From IMG/VR virus record IMGVR_UViG_3300023440_000002, positions 1 through 64,000 of that record: DNA of 64,000 nt; one strand, 5' to 3'. The notes beneath the pieces were generated by a model. That model saw only the letters and a program-made list of their open reading frames with translations, made no database searches and was not told the DNA's origin. The translations under genes and the position numbers were made by a program. Source of the stretch: a virus. Positions 42,904-60,346 of the stretch are shown in pieces (position 1 is the stretch's first letter; each line of letters starts with the position of its first letter).

Positions 42904-43797
42904 ATGGCAGAACTAAAAGAGAAGTTAACGGCATTAACAAAAGATCAAGAAGGGGCTATGGAGGGGTACAAAGACGAAGGTTGTCGTATCGGTCTTACTC
43001 TTGAAGATAACAAAACCGACCCAAAAAGAGTTCATGATATTATGAATCAGTTAAGGGTTTCTTGTGGTTTTGAAGAAGCCGAAGATTTTGTTTACCTTGA
43101 TAGCCCTAAGGCGGCTGTTTCAGGGTATGAAGAGTGTAATGTGCATAATTGTATGTACGGGTATCATGACATCAACTGGATTCAACACTACATGTTCTTT
43201 AAGAAAGAAACTGAGATTGAAGTTGACGATCGGATTGATCTTATGTTGGAGTTAGCGGAAACAGCTGGCTGGATGTGGATGACACCTAAACTGAATATTA
43301 TCACCAAAAGACCGGTTAAGTTAAACATGATCAAAAAAAGCAACAACATTAAGGTTATGCATAACTACAACGGAAAAGCTGTCGAGTTTGCTGACGGTTA
43401 CGGGGTTTATATGATTAATGGGGTTCAAATCCCAAAAGATCTAACTTACTTGGTCGATATGCCGGCCGAAGAGATAGACATCAAAACTGTCCTTGATATT
43501 AAAAACACCGAAATTAGAACAGAATTCCTAAAAAAGGTCGGTATCGAAAAGGCTTTTGATTCTCTATCTAAAACAAAACTAGACGAAAAGGAGATGGAAA
43601 TTGGTGGAACTTACGAGTTGTTTTCTGTTCAATTAGGTGAAGTTACTCGCATTTACCTAAGAGGTGAGTGCCCAAGCAATCAAGAACCTTTCTTTGAAGG
43701 TTGCCATCCGGACTGCAAAACAGTAGAGCAGGCTTTGAATTTCCGTAACGGGTTCAAACTTAACCTTAAGTTTAATGCACCACTAAACTTAACCTAA
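42904..43797 (+). CDS. DUF6745-like protein
   Basis: YGYHDINW, GWMW..ITKRP, HNYNGKAVEFADGYGVYMINGVQIP, NTEIR, CPS..C motifs. Confidence 0.75.
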   Translation: MAELKEKLTALTKDQEGAMEGYKDEGCRIGLTLEDNKTDPKRVHDIMNQLRVSCGFEEAEDFVYLDSPKAAVSGYEECNVHNCMYGYHDINWIQHYMFFKKETEIEVDDRIDLMLELAETAGWMWMTPKLNIITKRPVKLNMIKKSNNIKVMHNYNGKAVEFADGYGVYMINGVQIPKDLTYLVDMPAEEIDIKTVLDIKNTEIRTEFLKKVGIEKAFDSLSKTKLDEKEMEIGGTYELFSVQLGEVTRIYLRGECPSNQEPFFEGCHPDCKTVEQALNFRNGFKLNLKFNAPLNLT

Positions 43798-43920: not shown

Positions 43921-44307
43921 ATGTATATGCAGTACTACCAGCAAGGTGACGTTTTGCTAAAGAAGGTTTCAGTCCTTCCAAAGGAAGCAAAAAAGATTAA
44001 AGGGAAGGTTCTTCAAGAATCTGAGATTACAGGCCATCACCATCATTTTAAGGGTAACGCAGCGGTTGATCTATATCAAACCCTCGAAACTCCAACTAAT
44101 GATAAAACCATCACACCGAACTTTGGCAAATTCATCATTGTTAAAGAAATGTCAGATCTTTTCCACGGAAAAGGCTTTGACGCCACCCCTGCGGCACTAA
44201 ACCGAGGCGACCATGACGCAATCTCTATTCCACCTGGAATTTACGAGATCGATATCGTTAGAGAGTACGACTTTGACGCAAATGAGGTTTCTCGAGTGGT
44301 CGATTAA
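43921..44307 (+). CDS. QGDV-motif His-rich protein (usual neighbour of DUF6745 genes)
   Basis: YQQGDVLL..ESEITGHHH..H..DHDAISIPPGIYEI..VREYD..VVD; TTGAAA-N17-TAGACT at 43856-43884. Confidence 0.75.
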   Translation: MYMQYYQQGDVLLKKVSVLPKEAKKIKGKVLQESEITGHHHHFKGNAAVDLYQTLETPTNDKTITPNFGKFIIVKEMSDLFHGKGFDATPAALNRGDHDAISIPPGIYEIDIVREYDFDANEVSRVVD

Positions 44308-44317
44308 TCGACCACTT

Positions 44318-44354
44318 AAAGGGGTGTCATTTTTACATGACACCCCTTTTTTTT
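44318..44354 (+). terminator. intrinsic terminator
   Basis: AAAGGGGTGTCAT..ATGACACCCCTTT followed by T-run. Confidence 0.85.
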
Positions 44355-45213: not shown

Positions 45214-45259
45214 GGTGTATGTAAATGGCAAGTAGCTAACCCAATAAGGGAAAACCTAG

Positions 45260-47494
45260 ATGGAAACTAAATCTATTGCAAGTAAGGTTCACAGGAAGGT
45301 TCACGAGCAGATTCGCTGGCAGGTTTTCGGGCAGATTAACTGGGAGATTAGCAACCAGGTTGCCGATCAAATAATCAATCCAATAATCAATCCAATAAGG
45401 GATGATCTAAATGGAAACTAAAGATATTACAAAAGATGTTCGCCAGCAGGTTTACGAGCAGGTTCGCCAGGAGGTTTACGAGCAGGTTAACCGGCAGGTT
45501 CGCTGGAAGGTTGACGAGCAGATTCACTGGCAAATTCGAGATCAGGTTTACCGGCAGGTTCGCTGGCAGATTAACTGGCAGATTAGCGATCAGGTTAACT
45601 GACAAATAACTGAACCAATAAAGGATAACCTAGATGAAAGCTAAAGATATCACAAAAGAGGTTTACCGGCAGGTTCGCTGGCCGATTCTCGAGCAGGTTG
45701 CCGATCAAATAATCAATCCAATAATCAATCCAATAAGGGAAAACCTAAATGGAAGCTAAAGTTATTACAAATATAACCGATAAGATTTACAGTCAGGTTC
45801 TCAACCAGGTTAGCGACCGGATTCACGAGCAGCTTTACTGGGAGATTTACGGGCAGGTCCACGACCAGGTTCTCGGGCAAATATCTGACCCAATAGAGGA
45901 AAACCTAGATGGAAGCTAAAGTTATTACTAATAATATTTACGACCAGGTTCGCCAGAAGATTAAACAGCAGATTTTCGAGCAAGTTTATTGGCAAGTTAG
46001 CTTGCAGGTTCGCTGGTATATTAGCGATCAGATTAACCAGCAGGTTCGCGAGCAAATAGCCACCCCAATAAGGGAAAATCTAAGTGGAAACTGAAGATAT
46101 TACAAAAGAGGTTCGCCGGCATATTGTCAAGCAGATTAACTTGCAGGTTCGCGATCAAGTAACTAATCCAATATGGACTGATCTAAATGGAAACTAAAGA
46201 CGTTACAAATACAGCCGATCAGTCCCGCCGGCAGGTTCGCTGGAAGGTTGCCGATCAGGTTTTCGACCAGGTTAATGATCAGGTTAATGATCAGGTTTAC
46301 TGGCAGATTAACTGGGAGATTAGCAACCAGGTTGCCGATCAAATAATCAATCCAATAATCAATCCAATAAGGGATGATCTAAATGGAAACTAAAGATATT
46401 ACTAATGAGGTTCGCCAGCAGGTTTACTGGGAGATTCACAGTCAGGTTAACTGGCATGTTCGCAACCAGGTTCGCAACCAGGTTCGCCGGAAGGTTTTCT
46501 CGCAGATTTACGAGCAGGTTTTCGGGCAAATAACTAACCCAATAAAGGAAGATCTAGATGGAAACTGAAGATGTTACAGATAAGATTTACTATCGAATTA
46601 CCGGACAGGTCCGCAATCAGGTTGAGTGGCAGGTTCGCAGGCAGGTTCGTGACCAGATTATTGACCAGATTTACGACCAGATTGACGAACAAATAGTTAT
46701 CCCAATAAAGGAAAATCTAAATGACTGAAGCTAAAGTTATTAAAAATAAGATTTACCGGCAGATTCGCGGCCAGATTTGCCGGCAGATTAACCGGCAGAT
46801 TCGCTGGCAGACTCGCAGTCAGATTTGCCGGCAGATTAACTGGGATATTCGCGATCAGGTTCGCATTCAGATTTACGATCAGGCTAATGATCAAATATTT
46901 AATCCAATAAGGGATGATCTAAATGGAAACTAAAGATATTACAAATACAGCCGATCAGTCCCGCCGGCAGGTTCGCTGGAAGGTTGCCGATCAGATTTTC
47001 GACCAGGTTAATGATCAGGTTTACTGGCAGGTTTTCGGGCAGATTAACTGGGAGATTAGCAACCAGGTTGCCGATCAAATAATCAATCCAATAATCAATC
47101 CAATAAGGGATGACCTAAATGGAAACTAAAGATATTGCAAAAGAGATTCACGAGCAGGTTTACGAGCAGGTTTGCGACCAGGTTAGCGAGCAGGTTCGCC
47201 GGCAGGTTCGCCGGCAGGTTTACTGTCAGATTGGCGACCAGACTTACTGGCAAGTAACTAACCCAATAAGGGATGACCTAAATGGAAACTGAAGATATTG
47301 CAAAAGAGATTCACGAGCAGGTTGGCGAGCAGATTCGCCGGCAACTTTACGAGCAGGTTAACCGGCAGGTTCGCTGGAAGGTTGACGAGCAGATTTACTG
47401 GAAGGTTCGCTGGCAGATTCTCAACCAGGTTTCCGAGCAAATTACCAATCAGATTATCTGACAGATTCAAAACCCAATAAGGGATAACCCCTAA
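45260..47494 (+). repeat. array A: 13 overlapping paralogous mini-genes (METKDI..(Q[VI]xx)n..NPI[KR]xDLNGN)
   Basis: Units at 45260-45421, 45411-45602, 45634-45759, 45749-45919, 45909-46094, 46084-46197, 46187-46393, 46383-46568, 46558-46728, 46721-46933, 46923-47129, 47119-47292, 47282-47461; conserved junction CCAATAAGGGAnnAnCTArATGGAAACTAAAG. Confidence 0.9.
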
Positions 47495-47516
47495 ATAAAC
47501 TAAGAAAGGAACTATT

Positions 47517-47738
47517 ATGGCAAAGCAAGAATCAACACCGTGGGATGACCTAGAAGGAAGATTGGTCAACTACAAAAAACTACACCAGAAGAAAGCCACC
47601 GGACCACTCAAGGAAGAACTGGCTAAGGCAAAAACCCTAACTCAAGCTAGAAAGGTACTCTTCGGAGAAAAGAAGAAAAGAATCAATTGCTCTAATTGCT
47701 CACACAAAGTTTGTGTTTGCGGGAAAACTTCCCGTTGA
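47517..47738 (+). CDS. small hypothetical protein with Cys cluster
   Basis: AAGGA RBS; CSNCSHKVCVCG. Confidence 0.6.
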   Translation: MAKQESTPWDDLEGRLVNYKKLHQKKATGPLKEELAKAKTLTQARKVLFGEKKKRINCSNCSHKVCVCGKTSR

Positions 47739-47906
47739 TTTTCGCAGTGAAGGTCAAAATAGAATCATTTGACTCGAGGTTTACTGAAATAACCCAAGAC
47801 CTTTATTTCAGTAAACCTCCTAGTGAACAAGAAATAACCAAAGAGGCTTCTATTGACCCGCAAGTAAAGTGGTCATACATCGTAAAAAGAGTAATCATAA
47901 TCAACA

Positions 47907-48161
47907 ATGAAGGTATTTAACTTAATATTATGGCTTAAGGGATTGTTCTCTAAAAAGGGTATATCACACACTATTATGAAACCCCAAGGATTTAACGCCC
48001 TTAAGCCTAGCACCCCATCTAATTGCATTTATTGCGAAAACCAATGGGAAGAATTCGACCAGCATTCTTATGAAAGATGCAGTAAATGCTTCGATCTAAC
48101 CAACCTCCACCCAAGCAAAGTAACTTTAAAGAACAATAAAATCACCATTAACTTCGAGTAA
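47907..48161 (+). CDS. small hypothetical protein with two CxxC
   Basis: CIYC..CSKC. Confidence 0.5.
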   Translation: MKVFNLILWLKGLFSKKGISHTIMKPQGFNALKPSTPSNCIYCENQWEEFDQHSYERCSKCFDLTNLHPSKVTLKNNKITINFE

Positions 48162-48165
48162 ACCC

Positions 48166-50391
48166 ATGACTAAATACGAACAATTCAGACAATACATCGC
48201 CCAATTCCTCCAAGGCCCTAACGTAGAAGCGATACTTAATAGTTTAGCAGACGATTCAACTAAACTAGAAAACCTATCGAGATCCGTAACAGACCAGCTA
48301 ACCATATCGACAGCCTCAAGTGTTTACTTAGATAAAAGACTAGCTGACAAAGGAATAACTCGCCCACCAGAACTAGGCATGTCTGACATATCATTCCGTA
48401 AGATGGGAATACAAATAACTGCGGCTAAGCAACTAACTGGATTAATCCATACGATACTGGGCACTTTCTATGGTGAAGAAGCAGTAAGGGCTAACCTGAA
48501 GAATACTAAGACAGGACCTTACAACCTAGAAGAAGGAATGGAACTAGAGTTCGAACTAGAGGATGGTATTACTAGGGTGGTATCATTCAAAAACACAGAC
48601 TTCATAAACATCAACCAAGCTACGGCATCAGAGGTAGCATCAGTAATAACACGATTCATAAGAACACAGAACTTAGGAGCTTTTGCTAGTACAGTAAAGG
48701 ACTTAAACACAGGCTTAGAGTTCATAAAGTTGTTCGGTGGAGCTGCGGGGCCATACTCAACAGTGACAGTCACAGGAGGCGAAGCTAATACAATCCTGCA
48801 ATTTCCTAATATTAGAGGAACCGAGCTGTTAGTTAATGATACAGCATGGGAGATTACCCGTACCGTAGGCAGCACATTACGGTTCAGATGGGCAGGCAAT
48901 TCCAAACCGGCATTAGACTTGATATTTCCAACCGACCGCGTAATGATTTACGGGCAAAGTTTTGAGTCTATTGGACTGGCCGGAACTTTTATTGTCTCAA
49001 ACGTACGACCTCCACTGATCGGCCCAGACCTAGACGCAGGGTGGTTCGAGATAGAAGTCCCTGCTTTCAGTGGCTTACGTTCTACTCAGCCTGGCACAAC
49101 ACCCCCAACTAACGTACCACCCGACACTATCTATTCTTATACCATAGTTCAAGCCAACTGGGAAGAGCTAATGTTCATGAAGCCAGTCAAAGCTTTACCT
49201 AACCGCCAGGTGCGTTACGCCTTAGGTTGGGAGCCTAGAGGTGATTTGCTGCGAATTTATATGCCGGCAACAACTGGTATTGTCTCTAGGGGGATTGAAG
49301 GTGCAGCACACTTACATTCGCTTTACGAGGACGGTAATCTGGATGGGGCTTTCGGCTCTGTTACGGATCTTGACTCCGCAGTGGAAGTTATCTCAGATCG
49401 CATTATACGATACCGCCAACTAGGTTACGATAATCACGCTACGGGAGGAGTATTGTCTTGGGGTGGTAATGACTACGAAATCGATTATGTCCGGCGTGAG
49501 CAATTCACCTCTACCGTATTTTTGAATGAGCCCCACGGATTGCCGGTAGTGCAAGATTCTTTCGGGCGCGACGTTTCTTTGGAAGTGGTATCTGTTGTGG
49601 TGGATATTATGCAGACAGACGATTTAGAATTCAAATCCCCCTATATGGTTGACCTAGGTAAGAACTACACCGTCAGGTCTGAGTTTGTTACTTCTCGCGC
49701 TAAGGTGTTTGCGGGTTCCACCCTGTCCACTTTGGATGTGGATGGTATTTTACCTAATGAGCCAGGGGTATTATTGTTCGACTTAAACACCGACAAAGAA
49801 GAAGGCCCTATTCGTTATGTTGGGGTTCAGGCTCAAAACGCCCCTAACGTGGTGAATATAGTGACTATTTCCCAAAACGGGCTGAATGTTACCATTACCA
49901 CAGATGCTCCTCACGGCGCTACTAGTGGCAGCAACATAGTAATATCAGGTACAACTTTCTTTGATGGGGTGTATCCCGTAGTGGGCGTACCTAACCCGAC
50001 TACCATCCAAGCGATTTCCACTGTCGTCCAGGTGGAGAATGAGGTTGGGGTAGGTAGCTTGTCTGTTGTGGTGGATAATGTTCGGTCTACGTTGCTGCTC
50101 GACCCTAGCAATGAATTCAAGTTTGATCATGAAATAGGAGCTGACTTAACTTTGATGTCTTCTAGGAATGCCTACCAGCCTGCCTTAGATGGCTCAGATT
50201 ACCCGTTCTACGTTACTGGGGTAGCTGAGGGTAGAGTTTTCGCTGCGGACGTCATAGAGGCTATTACGGCGTTAGGGATTAATATCGAAATATTGATCGT
50301 CTACCCAAGCGATAAAGGCCTAGGCAACGAAGGAGGTTCAGATGGTAATGAAACCCCTGTGTCAGATAAAGTTACGGTTTGGGGTGTTTAA
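48166..50391 (+). CDS. baseplate wedge protein (I/gp7-like partner of J)
   Basis: TASSVYLDKRLADKGITRP..MSDISFRK N-terminus; shares F..ATA.E and TTDAPHG repeat motifs with the J-like protein. Confidence 0.7.
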   Translation: MTKYEQFRQYIAQFLQGPNVEAILNSLADDSTKLENLSRSVTDQLTISTASSVYLDKRLADKGITRPPELGMSDISFRKMGIQITAAKQLTGLIHTILGTFYGEEAVRANLKNTKTGPYNLEEGMELEFELEDGITRVVSFKNTDFININQATASEVASVITRFIRTQNLGAFASTVKDLNTGLEFIKLFGGAAGPYSTVTVTGGEANTILQFPNIRGTELLVNDTAWEITRTVGSTLRFRWAGNSKPALDLIFPTDRVMIYGQSFESIGLAGTFIVSNVRPPLIGPDLDAGWFEIEVPAFSGLRSTQPGTTPPTNVPPDTIYSYTIVQANWEELMFMKPVKALPNRQVRYALGWEPRGDLLRIYMPATTGIVSRGIEGAAHLHSLYEDGNLDGAFGSVTDLDSAVEVISDRIIRYRQLGYDNHATGGVLSWGGNDYEIDYVRREQFTSTVFLNEPHGLPVVQDSFGRDVSLEVVSVVVDIMQTDDLEFKSPYMVDLGKNYTVRSEFVTSRAKVFAGSTLSTLDVDGILPNEPGVLLFDLNTDKEEGPIRYVGVQAQNAPNVVNIVTISQNGLNVTITTDAPHGATSGSNIVISGTTFFDGVYPVVGVPNPTTIQAISTVVQVENEVGVGSLSVVVDNVRSTLLLDPSNEFKFDHEIGADLTLMSSRNAYQPALDGSDYPFYVTGVAEGRVFAADVIEAITALGINIEILIVYPSDKGLGNEGGSDGNETPVSDKVTVWGV

Positions 50392-52671
50392 GATCTCCCC
50401 TTATCAGGTTAGCTACTTGCCAGCTAACCTGCCAGTGAACCCGGTTGCTAGTCTGACGTTGAATATGCCAGTAAACCTGTCCGCTAACCTGCTCGTAAAC
50501 CTGCCGGTAAATCTGCTCGCGAATCTTATTAGCAATATCATTAGTTTTCATCGATATCATCCTTTATTTGGTTAGCTACTTGCCAGCTAATCTGCTCGAG
50601 AATCGGCCAGCGAACCTGCCTTCTAATCTTATTGCTAACCTGCCAGCGGACCTGCCAGTGAACCTGCCAGATAACCTGCCAGTAAATCTGCTCGCGAACC
50701 TGCTGGCGAATCTCTTTTGCAATATCATTAGTTTCCACTTAGGTCGCTCCATATTGGATCAGTTATTTGCAGGCGAACCTGCTCGCAAGCCTGCCGGTGA
50801 ACCTGCCATCCAACCTGCCAGCTAACCTGCTCGATAACCTGCTCGAGAATCTGCTCGTAAATCTGCTCGCGAATCTTACTTGTAATATCATTAGTTTCCA
50901 TTCAGATTATCCCTTATTGGGTTGGCTATTTGCTGGCCAACTTGGTCGATAATCCGGTCGCTAACCTGCCGGTAAACCTGCTCGATAACCTTCCAGTAAA
51001 CCTGGTCGTCAATCTGCTCGAGAATATGCCAGCAAACCTGATCGTAAACCTCCTGGCGAATCTCTTTTGCAATATCATTAGTTTCCACTTAGGTCGCTCC
51101 ATATTGGGTTGGCTATTTGCTCTTGAACCTGCCAGTAAACCTGGTCGTTAACCTTCCAGTAAACCTGTCCGCTAACCTGCTCGTAAACCTGTCGGTAAAT
51201 CTGCTCGCGAACCTGATCGATAACCTGCCCTCGAACCTGCTGGCGAATCTCTTTTGCAATATCTTCAGTCATATAGATCATCCTTGATTGGATTAGCTAC
51301 TTGCAGGCGAACCTGCTCGTAAACCCGCCAGTTAATCTGGTCGTCAATATGGCCGTAAATCTTCCAGCGAATTTCTTTTGTAATACCTTTAGCTTTCATT
51401 AAGGTTATCCTTTATTGGGTTAGCTATTTGATCGAAAACCTGGTCGATAACCTGCCCGCTAACCTGGTCGTCAATCTGCTCGAGAATATGCCAATAAGCC
51501 TGGTCGTTAACCTGCCCCAGAACCTGCTGGCGAACCTGCCAACGAACCTCATTAGTAATAACTTTAGCTTTCATCTAGGTCGCTCCATATTGGATCAGTT
51601 ATTTGCAGGCGAACCTGGTCTCGAATCTCCCAGTGAACCTGCTCGATAACCTGCAAGTTAATTTGCTTGACAATATGCAGGTAAGCCTTCCAGCTAATCT
51701 CTTTTGCAATATCTTCAGTCATTTAGGTTTTCCTTTATTGGGTTAGTTATTTGCCAGCTAACCTGCTCGAGAATCTGCCAATTAACCTGCTCGATAACCT
51801 GCCAGTAAACCTGTTCGATAACCTGCCGGCGGATCTGGTTGCGAACCTGCCCGCTAACCTGGTCGTCAATCTGACAGTAAACTTGCCAGCTAATATCTTC
51901 AGTCATTTAGGTTATCCTTTATTGGGTCAGATATTTGATCATGAACCTGCCATCCAATCTGCCATCCAATCTGCCGGAAAACCTGCCAGTAAACCTGTCG
52001 GCGAACCTTCCAGAGAGCTTGGTCGTTAACCTGATCATTAACCTGCCGGTGAACATCTTTTGCAATATCTTCAGTTTCCATTTAGGTTATCCTTTATTGG
52101 GTCAGATATTTGATCATGAACCTGCCATCCAATCTGCCATCCAATCTGCCGGAGAGCCTGGTCGTTAATCTGCCAGTAAATCTGTTGGTGAATCTGCTGG
52201 TGAATCTCATTAGTAATATCTTTAGCTTTCATCTAGGTCTTCCCATATTGGATTAGCTATTTGCTCGAAAACCTGCTCGTAAACCTGCCGGCGAACCTGG
52301 TCGTAAACCTGCCCGCGAATCTGCCAGTAAATCTCCCAGTAAACCTGCCAGTTAACCTCTTTTGTGATATCTTCAGATTCCATTTAGATCTACCTTTATT
52401 GGGGTGGCTATTTGATTGCGAACCTGCTCGTAAACCTGCCGGCGAACCTGGTCGCAAACCTGCCCGCGAATCTGCCAGTAAATCTCCCAGTAAACCTGAT
52501 CATTAATCTGCCAGTGAAGCTTCCAGTGAACCTGGCCGTTAATCTGCTCTCGAACCTGCTGGCGAATCTCATTAGTAATATCTTCAGCTTTCATCTAGGT
52601 CATCCATTATTGGGGTGGCTATTTGATTGCGAACCTGGTCGCTAACCTGCCGACCTTACTTTACATAAACC

Positions 52672-52698
52672 TTATCGGTTATGTCTGTAATAACTTTA
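52672..52698 (-). promoter_or_regulatory. sigma-28-type promoter inside an array stub unit
   Basis: TAAAGTTA-N11-ACCGATAA. Confidence 0.7.
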
Positions 52699-52958
52699 GC
52701 TTTCACTTAGGTCTCCACCTATTAGGTTACGAACCTGCCGGCGAACCTGCCAGTGAACCGGCAGGTTAATTTGCTCGACAATATGCAAGTAAGTCTTCCA
52801 GCTAGTCTGCTGGTTAACCTGCTGATGGATCTTCCAGTGAATCTGCCGGCGAATCTCTTTTGTAGTATCTTTAGTTTCCATTGAGATTTTCCTTTATTGG
52901 GTCAGTTATTTGATTGCGAGCTTGATCGTCAATTTGCCGACCTTACTTTACATAAACC

Positions 52959-52985
52959 TTATCGGCTATATCTGTAATAACTTTA
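52959..52985 (-). promoter_or_regulatory. sigma-28-type promoter inside an array stub unit
   Basis: TAAAGTTA-N11-GCCGATAA. Confidence 0.75.
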
Positions 52986-55525
52986 GTTTCCATGCAGATC
53001 TTCCCTTATTGGTTCAGTTATTTGCCCATGAACCTGGTCGTGAACTTGCCAGTTAATTTGATCGAGAATCTGGCCGTGAACCTGGTCGCCAATCTGCTGA
53101 TAAACACCCCGGCTAATCTGATCATTAATCTGCTGGTGAATCTTACCTATAATATCTTCAGTTTTCATTAAGATCTTCCCATATTGGGTCAGTTATTTGC
53201 AGGCGAACCTCCCAGTAAGTCTGGTCGCCAATCTGCCAGTAAACCTGCCGGCGAACCTGCTCGAGAACATGGCCGCGAATCTGATGGTAAATCTCCCAAT
53301 CAACCTGCCAGTGAATCTTACTTGTAATATCTTTAGTTTTCATTTAGGTCTACCTTTATTGGAGAGGTTGTTTGCCAGCGAACCTGCATATCAACCTGAT
53401 CTAGAATCTGCCGCTGAATCTGCCAGCGAACCTGATAGTGAACCTGATCTCGAATTTGCCAGTAAATCTGCCAGTTAACCTCTTTTGTAATATCTTTAGT
53501 TTTCATCGAGGTCATCCTTTATTGGGTCGGATATTTGATTGTAAACCTGATTGTGAACCTGATCTAGAATCTGCCAGTAAGCCTGCCAGTAAGTCTGCCC
53601 GCTAGCCTGGCCTTTAATACGCTCGAGAATCTGGCCGTGAACCTCCCAGTGAACCTGATCGTAAATATGCCCGCTAGCCTGCTGGCCAACCTGATTGGTA
53701 ATTTGATCGTCAACCTGCTCGTCAACCTGCCAGTAAATCTGTTGACTAATCTGATTATGTACCTTGTCGGCTATATCTTTAGTTTTCATTTAGGTCATCC
53801 TTTATTGGGTTAGCTACTTGCTGGTGAACCTGCTCGTGAACCCGCCAGTAAACCTCCTCGTAAGTCTCCTCGTAAACCTCCCAATAAACACAATCGTAAA
53901 GATGCTTGCTAACCTTATCGAGAATCTGATTGCGAACCTGCCAGTGAATCTCATCGTGAATCTTACCTGTAATACCATCAGCTTCCATCTAAGTCTTCCT
54001 TTATTGGGATGGTTATTTGCCAGCGAATCTGATCGCGAACATGCCAGTTAACCTTCCAGCGAACCTGCTCGAGAATCTCCCAGTCAACCTGCTCGCTAAC
54101 CTTCCAGCGAATCTGACTGTAAATCTTACTTGCTATATCTTCAATTTTCATTTAGGTCATCCTTTATTGGGTCGGATATTTGATTGTAAGCCTGCTCGTG
54201 AACATGCTGGCGAACCTGCCGGTTAACCTGCTCGTAAACCTCCCAGCTAACCTGGTCGCAAATCTGCTCGAAAACCTGGTCGCGAATCTCCCAGTGAATA
54301 CCCCAATGAACCTGGTCGTAAACCTGCGAGCGAACATCTTTTGTAATATCTTTAGTTTTCATCGAGGTCATCCTTTATTGGAGAGGTTGTTTGCCGGCGA
54401 ACCTTACCGTGAATCAGCCAATTAACCTGTTCGCGAATCTGACTGTAAACCTGCCAGTGAACCTGCTCGTAAATCTGCCAGTGAGCGTGACTGACAATTC
54501 GATTGTGAATTTTGTCGGCTATATCTTTAGTTTTCATCGAGGTCATCCTTTATTGGGTTAGCTACTTGCTCGTGAACCTGATTGTGAACCTGATCTAGAA
54601 TCTGCTCGCTAATCTGCTTGCGAACCTCCCAGTAAGCCTCCCAGCGAATACCCCAATGAACCTGGTCGTAAACCTGCTTATAAACCTTATTTGCGGCAAT
54701 TTTAGCTTCCATTTAGTTCATCCCTTATTGGGTTGGCTATTTGATTTCGAATTTGCCTATGAATCTGCTTGCGAACCTCCCAGTAAACCTCCCAGCGAAC
54801 CTGCAAGTTAATCTGCTTGACAATATGCAGGTAAACCTCCCAGCTAATCTCTTTTGTAATATCATTAGTTTCCATCTAGATCTTCCTTTATTGGGTTAAG
54901 TATTTGATCACGAATCTGCCAGTTAACCCTCGAGTAAGCCCTCCAATAAACCAAATAATCAACCTGCTCGCGAACTTGCCAGTAAATCTTCCGGTAAACC
55001 TGCTGGCGAATCTCATTAGTAATATCTTCAATTTCCATTTAGGTCTTCCCATATTGGATCAACTCCTTGCTCACGAACTTGAGCGTAAATCTGCCAGTAA
55101 ATCTGCCAGCGAACCTTCCGGTTAACTTTCTCGTGAATATGATTGATAGTCTGCCGGCGAATCTGCTGGCGAACCTGGTCGTGAATCTCTTTTGTAATAT
55201 CTTCAGTTTCCATTTAGGTCATTCCTTATTGGGTCGATTATCTGTACGTGAACCTGCCAGCGAACATGCAAGCGAACATGCTCGAGAATCTTCCAGTAGG
55301 GGTTCCGGCCAACCTGATCAACGACCTGCTCTCGAACCTGGTCGTAAACCTGCTTATAAACCTTATTTGCGGCAACTTTAGCTTTCATTTAGATCTTCCT
55401 TTATTGGGATAACTATTTGCCCGCGAATTTGATCGTTAATCTGCTCGTTAATCTGTTCGCGAACCTGCCCTCGAACCTGCCAATAAGTCTGCCAGTCAAC
55501 CTTCCAACTAATCTCGCTACACACC

Positions 55526-55552
55526 TTATCGGTTATACCTGTAATAACTTTA
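55526..55552 (-). promoter_or_regulatory. sigma-28-type promoter inside the first unit after the ClpP-like gene
   Basis: TAAAGTTA-N11-ACCGATAA. Confidence 0.7.
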
Positions 55553-55572
55553 GCTTTCATTTAGATCTTCCT

Positions 55573-56115
55573 TTATTCGCTCAAATACACAGCACCATCA
55601 ACAAAACCCGGAGCTATCTTGTCCAGGTACTCTCTATTCATATAGGTTTGGTTCTTGATTAGTTCTTTATAATTCGGAGGGTTAAATATCTTATTGATCT
55701 CTTTATGAATAAAAACATTATCTTTAATTGTCTTTTTAGAATCTTCCATTGTTACAATACATCGAGACGGACAATAATAATACAAGTTATGCATCATCAT
55801 TGTTGCTTTTGGCGTTAAGTGCCTGGTATCACACAAGGTTGAAATATAAAAGGCCATACTTAGGGCTTTCTTAATCAGGCAATGAACTTTAAACCCTCTC
55901 TTTTTAATGTCCTGAATTGAAGCCCCTAGCTGAAAAAAAGGCGTAACCGGCCCTCCAGGACTGTCAATTGTTAAATAAACATCCCGATGGGTCAACCTAA
56001 TATAAACTGCCAACGCAGATGCCGACATAGAATCGGTAAGCTTTAGTTTAGATACTTCACTAGCTGAAACCTGACTAGGCAACAGGATCATTAAAATTAA
56101 AAGTAAGTATTTCAT
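55573..56115 (-). CDS. ClpP-like serine peptidase with signal peptide
   Basis: VYLTIDSPGG, ALSMAF (Ser), MMMH (His); N-terminal MKYLLLILMILLPSQVSA. Confidence 0.8.
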   Translation of the reverse strand: MKYLLLILMILLPSQVSASEVSKLKLTDSMSASALAVYIRLTHRDVYLTIDSPGGPVTPFFQLGASIQDIKKRGFKVHCLIKKALSMAFYISTLCDTRHLTPKATMMMHNLYYYCPSRCIVTMEDSKKTIKDNVFIHKEINKIFNPPNYKELIKNQTYMNREYLDKIAPGFVDGAVYLSE

Positions 56116-56129
56116 ATTGTTCCTTTCTG

Positions 56130-58120
56130 TTAGGGTTTAATCTCTATTCCATTAACCTTATCGGCTATATCTGCAATATCTTTAGTTTCCATTTAGATCT
56201 ACCTTTATTGGTTCAGTTATTTGCTGGTCAACCTGGTCGCAAACCTGCCAGTGAATATGCCAGTCAACCTGCCAGCGAATCTCCCAGTGAGCCTGGTCAT
56301 TAATCTGACGGTCAACCTCCTGACGAATCTTTTTTGTAATATCTTTAGTTTCCATTTAGGTCTTCCTTTATTGGGAGGGTTATTCGGTCGTCAATCTTTA
56401 AGTGGATCTCCCAGAGAACCTCCCGGCGAATCTTCCGACTAATCTGCTCATCAACCTGCTCATCAACCTGCTTATAAGTTTGGTTGTCAATCTGCAAGCG
56501 AACCTGCTCGATAACCTCATTAGTGATATCTTTAGTTTTCATCTAGGTTTTCCTTTATTGGGTTAGCTACTTGCTCGTGAACCTGCTCGTCAACATTCCA
56601 GTAAATCTCCCGGCTCACCCCCCTGTCAACCTGCCGGTTAATCTGCCAATAAACCTGATCGCTAATCTCCCGACGAATTTTATTACCAGTATCTTCAGCT
56701 TTCATCTAGATCATCCTTTATTGGGTTAGCTACTTGCTCGTGAACCCGCCAGTAAACCTGCCTGTGAACCTTCCAGCGAACCTGCCCTCTAGCCTGCCAA
56801 TTAATCTGTTTGTGAACCTTCCAGCGAACCTGCTCGTCAAACTCTTTTGTAATATCTTTAGCTTCCATCTAGGTCTTCCTTTATTGGGAGGGTTATTTGC
56901 TCGTCAATCTTTAAGTGGATCTCCCAGAGAACCTCCCGGCGAATCTTCCGACTAACCTGCCAACAAACCTGCTCATCAACCTGCTTATAAGTTTGGTTGT
57001 CAATCTGCAAGCGAACTTTATTACCAATATCTTTAGCTTCCATCTAGGTCTTCCTTTATTGGGTCGAATACTTGATTGTAAACCTGGTCGTGAACCTGTC
57101 GGCGAACCTGTCGGTGAACCTGCCATCCAACCTGCCGGAGAACCTGACAGTTAGCCTGCCAGCTAACCTGCCAGCTAACCTGCCAGCTAACCTTTTTTAT
57201 AATACCTTTAGTTTCCATCTAGGTCTTCCTTTATTGGATTAGTTATTTGCTCGAAAACCTGGTCGCAAACCTGCCCGCGAATCTGCCAGTAAATCTCCCA
57301 GTAAAACTGATCATCAATCTGCCAGTGAACCTGGCCGCGAATCTGCCAGTAAACCTGGTCGTCAACCTCCCGACGAATCTTTTTTATAATACCTTTAGTT
57401 TCCATCTAGGTCTTCCCTTATTGGATTGGTTATTTGACCGAAAACCTGCAAGAGAGCATGCAAGCGAACATGCAAGCGAACCTTCCAATAAATCTGCCAG
57501 TCATCCTGCCAGTTAACCTGCTCGAGAATCTGGTCGCGAATCTCTTTTATAGTATCACTAGCTTCCATCTAGGTTTTCCTTTATTGGGTCGGTTATTTGC
57601 TCGAAAACCTGGTCGTAAACCTGTCGGCGAATATGCCGGCGAACCTGCCATTCAATCTGCCCTCGAACCTGCCATCCAACCTGCCGGAGAACCTGACAGT
57701 TAGCCTGCCAGCTAACCTGCCCGCGAACCTGTTCGATAACCTCTTTTGCAATATCTTTAGCTTCCATTTAGGTCTACCATTATTGGGTTAGTTATTTGTG
57801 TGCGGATTTTACTGTAAGTACTCCAGCTGACCTGCATGTTAACTTCTTTTCGAGCGTTCCAATCAAAAACACTGCAAGCGGGTAGATTAGACAGATTAGC
57901 AATCTCATCAGTAATACCCAACCGTAAATCAATTATGTCTGTCATCGAGATCTCCCTTTATTGAAGCCATCACCTGCAAGCGGACCTCCAAGTGAATTGC
58001 AAAAGTGGTTTGTTGGTAAATGTAACTCCGAACATTAAACCTAAAGAGATCTGGGGAGTTACGTGTGCATTGACTTAGAAGGTCGATGGCTATCTTATGT
58101 TGAATATCAAGGACTTTCAT
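56130..58120 (-). repeat. array B proximal part: 12 mini-gene units
   Basis: Starts at 58120 and 57945 (divergent), 57767, 57568, 57405, 57218, 57043, 56868, 56705, 56542, 56355, 56192 (stub). Confidence 0.88.
56158..56184 (-). promoter_or_regulatory. sigma-28-type promoter in the stub unit upstream of the ClpP-like gene
   Basis: TAAAGATA-N11-GCCGATAA. Confidence 0.7.
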
Positions 58121-58885: not shown

Positions 58886-60346
58886 TTGAAGAAAATACTA
58901 TCAAAATTGCAAATAAAACAAAAGCTTACCTCTTTAGCTGGCAAAGCCAAAGAAAAGATAGATCGCACCTCCCTCGGCAACCCTAGTGATAACTTATACA
59001 GTGAAATCAAGAGCTTACGTAATATGCAAAGAAAAGGTGCCCGTATGGGTAAGTCGGAAGCCGCTAAGCTACTTAAAGGTTCTTTGCAGCGACGTAACCC
59101 TTTCAATCCCGAAAACGTAGACCCGGACGAAAGGTACGACGTTAAAAGTTGGACTGACAGTTACGGCGACAGAGCTGACATTCCTCAAATGCAACCGGAA
59201 GCGAAACAGCGCGGCATGCATAAACTACACGGACTCACCCAGTCAAGGCAAAACGAATCAGGTGAAATGGAGTTCTTACTCCACAGGGGTATGAACCATG
59301 ATGAGCACGAAGCTATACAAACTTACGGCACCGGGGATAGTACCAGCTCTTGGACTCCTCATGTCGGAATAGCCCAAGACTTCGCCTCGCATTATCAAGA
59401 TCAATTCGACCCCCCATCTAAGGTTGTATCGGCCTGGATACCTGAATCTCAAATCCATCATATCCCAAACACCATCGGAGGAAAGAGGTACCCTGAAGGT
59501 AATATTTCTAACTCTAACCATAGCCACGAACAAGAAGTTATAGTTAAACCTCACAGATTCAATACGGTAGATTACCAGCAACCCGACAGCGACGACACGA
59601 TAAACTCAAGAATAAGTGCGAGAGGTAAAAATCTCACGAACTTTAGGTCTTACGCTAAACGCCGACTGGGAAAGAAGGAGGAACTAGAAAAGGGATCTTT
59701 GCAGCGCCGCAACCCTTTCAACCCAATAAAAGATGTTTCACCTAAAGACCGGCGAGACGTAGAAAAATGGCATAGAGGTGTAGGGGAGAGGTCGGACAGG
59801 GATTCTGCTCCAAGTAAAATTCCGGAAAACGCCACAAAGCGCGGCATGCATAAACTACATGGACTTACCCAGTCAAGGCAAAACGAATCGGGCGAACGAG
59901 AGTTCCTGCTCCATAGAGGTGCTGGCGCTCAAGAATCCGGATGGCTAAACAGCTCTAAGGTTCTTAGCGGACATTCGAGCTGGACTCCTAAGTATAAAGT
60001 GGCAGAACGATTTGCTAGTATGAACCCCCACGCAAAGGGCAATGTTTTTAGTGCGTGGATTCCTGAATCTCAAATAGCTGGAACACCTAATGCGATTGGG
60101 GAAGCTGGGTATTCTATAAAGCAAGATCACCACCTCCCCAAAGAAACCCCAGCCAAAATGATGAGGCCTGCATATTTTAGCAGCGAACAAGAAGTCATAG
60201 TTAAACCCCACAAGTTCAATATAGTAGACCATCAACACCCCGACGACCAAGAAACCTCCCTTAACTCCAGAGTAAACCTAAGAGGGTCAGGTTCGGACAG
60301 CTTCAAGGATTATGCCGAAAGGATCATCAGGAGGAGACAAAAATGA
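58886..60346 (+). CDS. protein with two tandem ADP-ribosyltransferase-like (R-S-E) domains
   Basis: Twice: L[LE]KGSLQRRNPFNP..FLLHRG..SSWTP..SAWIPES..EQEVIVKPH. Confidence 0.7.
   Translation: MKKILSKLQIKQKLTSLAGKAKEKIDRTSLGNPSDNLYSEIKSLRNMQRKGARMGKSEAAKLLKGSLQRRNPFNPENVDPDERYDVKSWTDSYGDRADIPQMQPEAKQRGMHKLHGLTQSRQNESGEMEFLLHRGMNHDEHEAIQTYGTGDSTSSWTPHVGIAQDFASHYQDQFDPPSKVVSAWIPESQIHHIPNTIGGKRYPEGNISNSNHSHEQEVIVKPHRFNTVDYQQPDSDDTINSRISARGKNLTNFRSYAKRRLGKKEELEKGSLQRRNPFNPIKDVSPKDRRDVEKWHRGVGERSDRDSAPSKIPENATKRGMHKLHGLTQSRQNESGEREFLLHRGAGAQESGWLNSSKVLSGHSSWTPKYKVAERFASMNPHAKGNVFSAWIPESQIAGTPNAIGEAGYSIKQDHHLPKETPAKMMRPAYFSSEQEVIVKPHKFNIVDHQHPDDQETSLNSRVNLRGSGSDSFKDYAERIIRRRQK

Follow-up and report, generated by a model that had tools for sequence, protein, structure and literature searches.

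What do the dozens of short overlapping genes in this phage encode, and why are they kept in so many different copies? The window analysed here is a stretch of 64,000 nt taken from the 108-kb record of an uncultured phage, which is estimated by CheckV to be 68% complete. The part of it that carries the repeated genes is laid out as follows.

45260..47461, + strand: array A, 13 overlapping mini-genes of 37-70 aa (ORF listing, parsing)
48166..50391, + strand: 741-aa ORF, the point of convergence of both arrays (ORF listing)
50372..55560, - strand: distal block of array B, 28 intact and 2 broken mini-genes (ORF listing, parsing)
55573..56115, - strand: ClpP-like 180-aa ORF with a signal-peptide-like N-end, inside array B (Pfam CLP_protease)
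56182..58120, - strand: proximal block of array B, 11 mini-genes (ORF listing, parsing)

By ORF listing and parsing we found about 54 mini-genes (units), 13 on the + strand and 39 intact plus 2 broken on the - strand, which occupy about 9.5 kb in all, i.e. about 9% of the record. An earlier note on this DNA had counted 13 + 42 units; the 13 on the + strand were recovered, but the minus strand gives 41 and hence a total of 54 as against 55. The per-unit statistics given below cover 52 units and the tetrad statistics cover 394 core tetrads. The shortest unit has 37 aa and the longest 97, the median being 61; 20 of the 52 units are 57 or 61 aa long. Stops inside the units are rare, as had been stated: there is a premature TGA in one array A unit (45411-45602), and the two broken units of array B (about 52594-52706 and about 52871-52993) are sister copies that have one in-frame TAA in common. 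Also, the last unit of array A (47282-47461) is without the C cap, and the first two units in the proximal block of array B (57757-57945 and 57929-58120) have divergent N halves. The 741-aa ORF had no match in Pfam and no relatives in the viral contigs searched, and it matches phrog_15814 weakly. The ClpP-like ORF matches Pfam CLP_protease at 1.1e-5 (25.8 bits against a cut-off of 20.2) and PHROG families of ATP-dependent or head-maturation proteases at 4e-5 and weaker.

All this repetition follows a simple code. The constant ends described earlier hold, namely M[EK][TA][KE]DI.. at the start and ..[NDT]PI[KRW][ED][DN]L[ND][GE][NS] at the end, where we have added T at the first C-cap position. 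The N cap has 8 residues, the C cap has 10, and the core between them has 5-21 tetrads. The 12-bp tetrad code (fixed Q, then V/I, then two variable residues) is upheld across the 394 core tetrads, with codon 1 being CAG in 270 of them, codon 2 GTT or ATT in 346, nt 9 C in 325, nt 11 A or G in 371 and nt 12 G in 257. At the protein level, position 1 is Q, sometimes E, K or H, and position 2 is V or I; the reported residue preferences were also found, in the order R, Y, H, N, S, L, D for position 3 and W, D, E, R, G, N for position 4. Codon-position variability across units, which the earlier note had proposed as a check, places the variation at tetrad nt 7, 8, 10 and 11 (entropy of 1.9, 1.5, 1.8 and 1.3 bits, respectively), while nt 2, 5 and 6 have 0.3-0.4 bits. 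It may be noted that the four-residue register takes in the caps too, which had escaped notice before; the whole unit can be written in four-codon register as METK DITK EVxx (Q-V/I-x-x)n QIxN PIKE DLDG N.

The AlphaFold2 models are of monomers only (a unit and the neighbouring protein P0001), and the unit model is a single helix over residues 2-59 with a pLDDT of 93. Of the single amphipathic helix suggested earlier, the single helix is therefore predicted but amphipathicity fails for a canonical helix, as the hydrophobic moment of the entire protein comes to 0.125 at 100 degrees (0.37 at 90 and 0.43 at 180 degrees). The low moment at 100 degrees implies that either the V/I stripe winds about the helix axis or the chain is something other than a plain alpha-helix; a regular amphipathic alpha-helix would not show a strict period of 4.0. 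The idea of a variable di-residue surface fares better, in that neighbouring tetrads are uncorrelated, the two positions of each tetrad vary independently of the neighbours and 95 distinct di-residues occur at positions 3 + 4, but the likeness to TALE repeats that went with it is formal only.

Where does such a repeat come from? A kinship of the units to the tract inside DUF6745 proteins had been missed by the earlier note. Searching with the unit profile, we obtained 924 representative proteins at E <= 1e-3, a number to be read with the caveat that profile matches to a low-complexity repeat overstate homology. Among the 150 matches listed, most are of 300-600 aa and are built of an N domain, a tract and a YGQHDAGWLSFYDFF-type C domain, and the 7 tract-bearing proteins that were checked against Pfam are all DUF6745. 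The units have the tract pattern typical of this family, i.e. a fixed polar residue, V/I/L, variable positions 3 + 4 and 12-nt uniformity, and the per-nucleotide entropy pattern is alike in six DUF6745 family tracts. Judged by sequence, the units appear to be the free-standing form of the internal hypervariable tetrapeptide tract of phage DUF6745 proteins. Three units scanned against the Pfam DUF6745 model at E <= 1 gave no match, so they are not family members and would be at most a detached part of one. The unit C cap resembles the post-tract sequence ENF[LT]WPYL[DS]G[NQ] in one DUF6745 subfamily only, the WPYLDG subfamily with a C-cap-like junction (L018, P0006, P0145, P0039 and P0034). A family-wide PSSM position test of the C cap at the tract/C-domain junction gave 8 sites against 8.8 expected, and the nearest tract-bearing relative of P0001 has a different junction; descent by fission of a tract-bearing gene is therefore only conceivable. 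In a literature search we found no published function of DUF6745 and no papers on such mini-gene arrays.

A member of the family is itself present 1.5 kb upstream of the arrays together with a conserved partner, both of which had been overlooked.

42904..43797, + strand: DUF6745 protein without a tetrapeptide tract (P0001, 297 aa; Pfam PF20530)
43921..44307, + strand: small His-motif partner protein (QQGDV...EITGHHHH, 128 aa; phrog_27831)
44318..44349, + strand: strong terminator-like hairpin ending the DUF6745-partner pair (consensus match only)

P0001 matches PF20530 at 1.5e-11 (44.4 bits against a cut-off of 27) and is the sole DUF6745 in the 108-kb record. Its relatives are tract-less too, with 291-328 aa and 36-52% identity, and certain H, D, N, E, R, K and S residues never vary in this subfamily. 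The AF2 model of P0001 (pLDDT 86) gave no match to a known fold, and for P0001 and its partner no enzyme fold or motif was recognisable by Pfam and structure comparison. The partner, which matches phrog_27831 at 4e-10, is homologous to an 80-aa gene after the tract-bearing DUF6745 of L018 (BLASTP 2e-6); its gene is conserved beside DUF6745, and the QQGDV segment is fused to the DUF6745 C-end in P0006 and P0163. The hairpin has a 13-bp stem, 6 of whose pairs are GC, and a T run after it. Mini-gene arrays are also found beside tract-less DUF6745 genes in three further metagenome lineages (L026; L039/L040/L046; L041/L042/L051), and six tract-bearing DUF6745 loci have no mini-gene array; the link between arrays and tract-less DUF6745, seen in four lineages, is not significant on its own.

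Are the units genes at all? The start codon is ATG in 49 of the 52 units and GTG in 3, and a Shine-Dalgarno (SD)-like 4-mer lies upstream in 44. At 37 of 50 unit junctions the stop and start overlap by 11 nt, whereby the C-cap codons double as the SD sequence and start codon of the next gene. Arginine in the cap is AGG in 12 of 12 cases, forming the SD, and within the tetrads it is CGN in 115 of 122 cases. Length changes in frame had been taken as a sign of selection, an argument we drop because any 12-nt repeat makes them automatic. What counts as evidence of selection on the protein is the deficit of stops at tetrad codon 4, with 0 observed against 42.7 +/- 4.6 expected (5000 shuffles, minimum 26); the +2 frame has 195 stops across full tetrad strings. 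The starts, SD, stop/start coupling and stop avoidance all fit genes, in line with the translated units of the earlier note, and we consider the units to be very probably real translated genes of the DUF6745 tract type.

The synonymous sites of the tetrads behave differently from those of the genome. They are nearly frozen, and opposed to the phage's own codon usage (GTT 97% in the tract against 38% in the genome, CAG 93% against 30% and CGC 86% against 7%); in close unit pairs of equal length, the four-fold site nt 6 differs 3 times and nt 7 135 times. Such freezing at the DNA level is what a non-coding or selfish tandem DNA, for example a binding-site array or a satellite, would explain. In a variant of this explanation the true frame is the antisense x-x-N-L, which has only 5 stops and takes the most variable nt 1, 4, 7 and 10 as its third codon positions. 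However, the antisense frame (Cnn Gnn AAY CTG) cannot hold stops by construction and has no ATG and no SD, whereas the sense frame avoids 43 expected stops, begins with ATG in all but three units, switches arginine codons exactly where an SD is needed and is the Q-V frame read in homologous tracts of real two-domain proteins. Both versions are thus very improbable. For annotation it should be borne in mind that the construction of the repeat leaves the antisense frame open, and that the word-based search returned none of the units in the window, although P0017 and P0067 are among the representative proteins.

The frozen-site pattern is repeated in six other DUF6745 tracts, two other arrays and Tweety gp54 (recomputed; PMC2884959). 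Four nucleotides per tetrad may be under diversifying selection (or targeted change) with the other eight held uniform at the DNA level, and the library would change by 12-nt slippage together with duplication/recombination of multi-tetrad blocks. If instead a diversity-generating retroelement (DGR) or other dedicated mutator wrote the variation, its restriction to the first two positions of the codon would follow, and the nnC codon would resemble the AAC codons of DGR targets, which are unable to become stops. But a reverse transcriptase (PF00078) is absent from the 108-kb record (68% complete), and no template copy was seen. Any of the four bases may stand at the variable sites, where a signature specific to adenine is lacking, and unrelated phages have tracts with this pattern in which the fixed codons are different ones; to a mutator of this kind we give the slightest chance. 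Mosaic blocks are common to different units, and the 8 uniform nt of every 12 along with the common caps offer ample homology for gene conversion, as would suit silent donor cassettes that are copied by recombination into an expressed tract-bearing gene, like pilS or vls. Yet each unit keeps its own start codon, SD and stop, none of which silent cassettes need, and the same record holds no tract-bearing acceptor, its sole DUF6745 having neither tract nor cap-like homology arms, so donor cassettes are quite improbable.

We therefore return to the units as translated genes. The two arrays would be convergent operons of about 54 translationally coupled micro-genes, each for one short protein, typically of 57-61 aa, and the tract that the DUF6745 gene lacks here would be kept beside it as a multigene library. 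The phage would thereby make a standing repertoire of variable helices that may bind partners which change in the course of the conflict between phage and host, host defence proteins being the most likely ones, and may cooperate with, or substitute for, the single tunable tract found in other DUF6745 proteins. This role is put forward by analogy and tentatively, at somewhat less than an even chance; the explanation as a whole, i.e. translated genes of the DUF6745 tract type having this role, we hold to be fairly probable, as a compromise between its parts. It is also conceivable that the units are a RiPP-like (prochlorosin-like) substrate or precursor library, modified or processed by the DUF6745 core, the His-motif partner or the ClpP-like protease, with tract-bearing DUF6745 proteins as the fused enzyme-substrate form; borosin systems likewise exist fused and split. 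This would give a meaning to the conserved caps round the variable core of each unit, to the one conserved two-gene core that arrays adjoin in four lineages, to the ClpP-like ORF with its signal-peptide-like N-end inside the array and to the invariant residues of the tract-less subfamily, which could form an active site. But DUF6745 and its partner show no recognisable enzyme fold or motif, the weak ClpP-like match is the only enzyme family recognisable nearby and its gene is absent from the other arrays examined, and the unit cores contain little of the residues that are usually modified (Cys, Ser and Thr); we regard a precursor library as unlikely. There is a modest chance, on the side of the binding helices, of a split combinatorial recognition in which a constant DUF6745 core and the His-motif partner accept any of about 54 exchangeable variable helices. 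If this is true, the phage would not mutate one tract but turn dozens of specificities on host defence or surface factors simultaneously, and this would be a germline-encoded repertoire of a kind not known to have been described in viruses.

With 924 cluster representatives by the unit profile, hypervariable tetrapeptide tracts belong to the most frequent of the rapidly evolving features in phage accessory proteins, and functional data come from one analogue only, Tweety gp54, with none for DUF6745. The free-standing units suggest that the tract functions as an independent module, more than the adjustable spacer proposed for gp54, and the arrays provide dozens of natural, short, synthesisable variants for finding its binding partner. 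If the helices are counter-defence binders, they would represent a new viral way of storing diversity, as a standing library versus mutation on demand.

On comparing the units with known systems, the likeness to TALE proteins lies in a scaffold that is constant except for two hypervariable residues in each repeat. TALE repeats are helical hairpins of 33-35 residues that read DNA bases, whereas the phage repeat has 4 residues on one continuous predicted helix. Net charge is mostly zero or negative (negative in 33 of the 52 units, positive in 12), which argues against the units reading nucleic acid in a TALE-like code; together with the 4-residue repeat and a Pfam scan that gave no TALE match, this led us to reject a TALE-like repeat protein. 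The nearest studied analogue, not homologue, is mycobacteriophage Tweety gp54 (with Che8 gp57 and PMC gp51), a non-essential accessory gene in which 12-bp in-frame repeats encode the tetrapeptide A-A-x-x, third codon positions are invariant and variation falls, as in the units, at repeat positions 7, 8, 10 and 11 (PMC2884959; recomputed here). Changes in its repeat number tune escape from the Phrann gp29/gp30 defence (PMC9262239). Checked against Pfam, gp54 has no DUF6745 domain, so a counter-defence role for the units would be borrowed from an analogue. Also, gp54 is one protein with unique N and C domains and an Ala-rich tract with G/S/W/Y, likely unstructured according to its authors, whereas the arrays consist of mini-genes with only 8-10-residue caps whose Q-V/I-based products are predicted to be helical. 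A spacer role, where the repeat sets the spacing of N and C domains as for gp54, cannot apply to a free helix with caps only.

The DUF6745 tracts of phages and prophages (such as L018:6627-8114, P0003, P0006, P0145 and MW202476 gene UOF77368.1) are made of four-residue units of the same type, in which a fixed polar residue is combined with V/I/L and either one or two of the positions are hypervariable. Their DNA likewise varies at nt 7, 8, 10 and 11 and has frozen synonymous sites, and they share with the arrays a DUF6745 core and small His-motif partner as neighbours. These tracts, however, are of 15-75 tetrads inserted between two domains of one protein, whereas the units of 5-21 tetrads stand alone, each with its own start, SD and stop, in about 54 different copies. 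The arrays of the three further lineages are likewise tandem overlapping genes of 50-110 aa in which constant caps enclose a hypervariable tetrapeptide core, and a tract-less DUF6745 lies no more than about 1.5 kb away. The L026 array has the same Q-V-x-x and 11-nt overlap, while the other two (L039/L040/L046 and L041/L042/L051) have S-V-x-x and other caps, and all three are far smaller, the contigs showing between 2 and about 12 units. The arrays of this phage are the most extreme form that we have met, the tract being detached from its protein and present as about 54 separate genes.

The source record of 108,381 bp, of which the window forms the first 64 kb, is classed as linear and estimated to be ~68% complete. 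The virus is a tailed phage, with Baseplate_J, ribonucleotide reductase and an mCpol domain found in the window by Pfam; one of its baseplate proteins has 26% identity (E = 4e-52) to the baseplate protein of Myxococcus phage Mx1, and there are no tRNA genes in the 64-kb window. The mini-genes (units), which encode short proteins of Q-V/I-x-x tetrapeptide repeats, are arranged as follows:

45260-47461, + strand: array A, 13 units (ORF listing and parsing)
48166-50391, + strand: ORF of 741 aa at the point of convergence of both arrays (ORF listing)
50372-55560 and 56182-58120, - strand: array B, 41 units in all in two blocks (ORF listing and parsing)
55573-56115, - strand: ClpP-like ORF of 180 aa between the two blocks of array B (Pfam CLP_protease, 1.1e-5)

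The earlier note had counted 13 + 42 units; the 13 on the forward strand are borne out, while the reverse strand holds 41 instead of 42. Its length range of 37-97 aa was recovered on parsing, with a median of 61; the length is 57 or 61 aa in 20 of 52 units and 4n+1 in 33 of 52. In the first two genes of array B (57757-58120, -) the N halves are divergent and lack the repeat (e.g. MKVLDIQHKIAIDLLSQCTRNSPDLF..), and only a small number of tetrads plus the C cap are retained; these two could represent leader genes or remnants of an earlier form. The ClpP-like ORF (55573-56115) has a signal-peptide-like N-end (MKYLLLILMILLPSQVSA) and is probably co-transcribed with the mini-genes of the - strand array. 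For the 741-aa ORF (48166-50391), no relatives were found among viral contigs. Sigma-70 promoters and terminators are not enriched over shuffles in the region. A 486-aa ORF (58886-60346, +) without a Pfam or PHROGs match consists of two similar halves, each with, by eye, ..LLHRG.., ..SSWTP.. and ..EQEVIVKPH.., motifs that recall the R-S-ExE motif of ADP-ribosyltransferases.

The units are real, selected and coupled micro-genes. The four-residue register spans the entire unit with its caps (METK DITK EVxx (Q-V/I-x-x)n QIxN PIKE DLDG N), 49 units start with ATG and 3 with GTG, and an SD-like 4-mer is present 4-20 nt 5' of the unit in 44 of 52. In 37 of 50 neighbouring pairs the overlap is exactly 11 nt (A-ATG-GAA-ACT-AA), which means that each unit is 3n+1 long and that one unit's stop falls within the start of the following unit. 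The SD of the following unit is contained in the C-cap codons CCA ATA AAG/AGG GA; the arginine codon is AGG in 12 of 12 cap cases and CGC, CGG, CGA or CGT in 115 of 122 tetrad cases. When nt 10, 11 and 12 were shuffled among tetrads (5000 shuffles), 42.7 +/- 4.6 codon-4 stops were expected (minimum 26) as against 0 observed; the +2 frame over the full tetrad strings has 195 stops and hence no sign of stop avoidance. The claimed scarcity of stops is also reflected in the presence of only three broken units, one with a premature TGA (45411-45602) and two sister copies with a common TAA. These sister copies (52594-52706 and 52871-52993, -) carry the identical in-frame TAA (..KVYVK*GRQ..) followed by different downstream sequence, from which it follows that a broken unit was duplicated and retained; each would yield a 16-aa peptide only. 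In-frame length change, which had been put forward as a sign of selection, is no proof of it, since repeats of 12 nt keep the frame whatever their number.

If the arrays were non-coding or antisense DNA, one could point to the antisense frame x-x-N-L (45236-58000), with (P/L)(A/V)NL repeats, which has only 5 stops and has the most variable nucleotides at its third codon positions, a pattern that at first sight resembles ordinary purifying selection on that strand. This frame was rejected as coding because Cnn Gnn AAY CTG cannot give a stop and neither ATG nor SD is found there. Further, the frame read in the homologous tracts of two-domain proteins is Q-V. On these grounds the sense frame is taken as coding, and the non-coding or antisense alternative is very improbable. 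Antisense false ORFs, e.g. 47258-47569 or 55067-55381, are easily annotated by gene callers.

Rapid change in the units is targeted to amino-acid-changing sites. The DNA consensus over 394 core tetrads is CAG RTT nnC nrG, the same 12-bp code as proposed earlier, with an entropy of 1.9, 1.5, 1.8 and 1.3 bits at nt 7, 8, 10 and 11 and of 0.3-0.4 bits at nt 2, 5 and 6. Synonymous sites are almost frozen, at odds with codon usage in the phage itself: of 220 valine codons in tetrads, 214 are GTT (38% in the large ORFs of the window), and CAG for glutamine and CGC for position-3 arginine reach 93% and 86% in tetrads as against 30% and 7% in the same ORFs. Across 21 close unit pairs of equal length, nt 7 differs 135 times and the four-fold site nt 6 only 3 times. 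The 394 tetrads contain 95 distinct di-residues and 254 distinct 12-mers, with no correlation of the variable residues between adjacent tetrads (W, acidic, basic and aromatic all within +/- 0.09). The longest exact core word common to most unit pairs is <= 11 nt; blocks of 24-70 nt are common to 27 of 1326 pairs, mostly pairs whose members lie in the same array, and units 46187 and 46923 are near-identical, differing by whole tetrads. Taken together, the frozen synonymous sites, the nt 7 excess, the uncorrelated tetrads and the mosaic blocks suggest that repeats turn over fast through slippage, duplication of blocks and recombination, which would keep the DNA uniform, and that diversifying selection of considerable strength, or a targeted change of some kind, acts in addition at four nucleotides per tetrad. 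Silent recombination cassettes would share such blocks too; weighed against the start codon, SD and stop that the units each retain, this reading is quite unlikely. That a dedicated mutator writes the variation is extremely improbable. A diversity-generating retroelement is also unlikely, as no reverse transcriptase was found in the ~68% complete record. When recomputed for gene 54 of phage Tweety, for six tracts of DUF6745 proteins and for two further mini-gene arrays, the nucleotide pattern recurred in all of them, the fixed codons differing from system to system.

A word-based protein search with one unit as query, at near and longer lengths, gave no match, as did blastn of array A against known phages, and a DNA pattern scan of viral contigs returned mostly unrelated simple repeats, with L018, a locus with a tract-bearing DUF6745 gene, alone being informative. 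A HMMER search of 1.84 billion representatives with a profile of eleven 61-aa units matched 924 proteins at E <= 1e-3, where the E-values come from the low-complexity repeat and overstate homology; the period, the fixed positions and the variable positions do agree. Among the 150 matches listed, most are of 300-600 aa with an N domain ending ..DSP[LM].., a tract of 15-75 tetrads and a C domain beginning YGQHDAGWLSFYDFF or similar, and all 7 of the 7 tract-bearing proteins scanned against Pfam were DUF6745 (PF20530). A few free-standing short matches from elsewhere (P0059, P0064, P0085, P0117, P0126) were among the matches listed. Judged by repeat pattern, the units are shown to be of the tract type of DUF6745. 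As might be expected if the units had descended by fission of a tract-bearing gene, the unit C cap [ND]PI[WK]EDL[DN]G[NS] resembles the post-tract junction NF[LT]WPYL[DS]G[NQ] of one DUF6745 subfamily (L018, P0006, P0145, P0039, P0034); a PSSM position test of C-cap homology over 122 tract-bearing proteins was null family-wide, and the junction differs in P0063, the nearest tract-bearing relative of the window's own DUF6745 protein. The protein atlas also lists viral clusters of 52-66-aa look-alikes.

This DUF6745 protein, P0001 (42904-43797, +), is the sole one of the 108,381-bp record and falls within a tract-less subfamily whose members have 291-328 aa; its ..DSPKAAVSGY runs directly into ..MYGYHDINWIQHYMFF, without a tract. 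It is followed by a partner gene (43921-44307, +) for a small His-motif protein of 128 aa, homologous to the gene after the tract-bearing DUF6745 of L018. The partner N-end reads ..YYQQGDVLL, and P0006 and P0163 have a QQGDV segment joined to DUF6745 near its C-end, a gene fusion which hints that core and partner may work together. A terminator-like hairpin with a 13-bp stem (44318-44349, +) lies directly 3' of the partner gene and stands between this pair and three small ORFs plus array A.

An alignment of tract-less DUF6745 proteins found no relatives in viral contigs or GTDB genome contigs, and 28 loci in a metagenome scan. Tandem mini-genes beside a DUF6745 gene were found in three further lineages, namely L026, which of the relatives that the scan recovered together with flanking DNA is the closest (Q-V-x-x units with the 11-nt overlap, immediately 5' of the DUF6745 gene), L039/L040/L046 (S-V-x-x units, MKTETV...DWVRERNKEV) and L041/L042/L051 (S-V-x-x units, MTSTNNSV...KQKLKEYDFNK). 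In every array lineage where the DUF6745 gene is complete it is tract-less, and no mini-genes are present at six clearly tract-bearing loci; arrays and internal tracts are complementary in this pattern, the four lineages being too few for significance. The protein atlas has 62 cyanobacterial proteins of ~432 aa with DUF6745 and leucine-rich repeats (LRR_4, LRR_8) in one cluster. Repeat modules of more than one kind seem to occur with the DUF6745 core, and these fusions, as a lead, fit the idea of the variable module as a binding module.

AlphaFold2, supplied with eleven paralogues, modelled a unit as one helix (residues 2-59, pLDDT 93), in line with the single helix expected by the earlier note. 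Its amphipathic character is not upheld, as the period is strictly 4.0 and the whole-protein hydrophobic moment only 0.125 at 100 degrees (0.37 at 90, 0.43 at 180). In the model the V/I stripe would circle the helix once per nine tetrads, pointing to assembly as a supercoil or to a wrapped partner; alternatively, the free peptide may not be a plain helix. Many short proteins with variable residues between constant caps could also form a RiPP-like precursor library; this has a rather low probability. A TALE-like reading as a nucleic-acid code is opposed by net charge, as 40 of the 52 units are neutral or negative overall. The model of the DUF6745 core (pLDDT 86) matched no solved structure convincingly, with a best E-value of 0.2 with Foldseek and a best Z of 4.9, in the last beta-sheet only, with VIA-align; PDB sequence searches with the unit profile, core profile and partner gave nothing usable.

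By analogy, we infer that the phage would express dozens of different variable helices simultaneously, and that these helices, by themselves or seated on the DUF6745 core, may bind partners that change in the course of phage-host conflict. Functional precedent is limited to Tweety gp54, which is without a DUF6745 domain. Exactly the same nucleotide pattern was described for Tweety gene 54 by Pham et al. (PMC2884959), and the number of repeats in gp54 tunes how the Phrann gp29/gp30 defence is escaped (PMC9262239); the spacer role proposed for gp54 cannot apply to a free helix such as the units. In the literature searched, we found no paper naming DUF6745 or describing such mini-gene arrays. Tweety and Pfam already provide examples of hypervariable tetrapeptide tracts in accessory proteins of phages; the detached, multiplied and separately translated form of such a tract is a new variant, and the arrays of the window are the largest example among those met.
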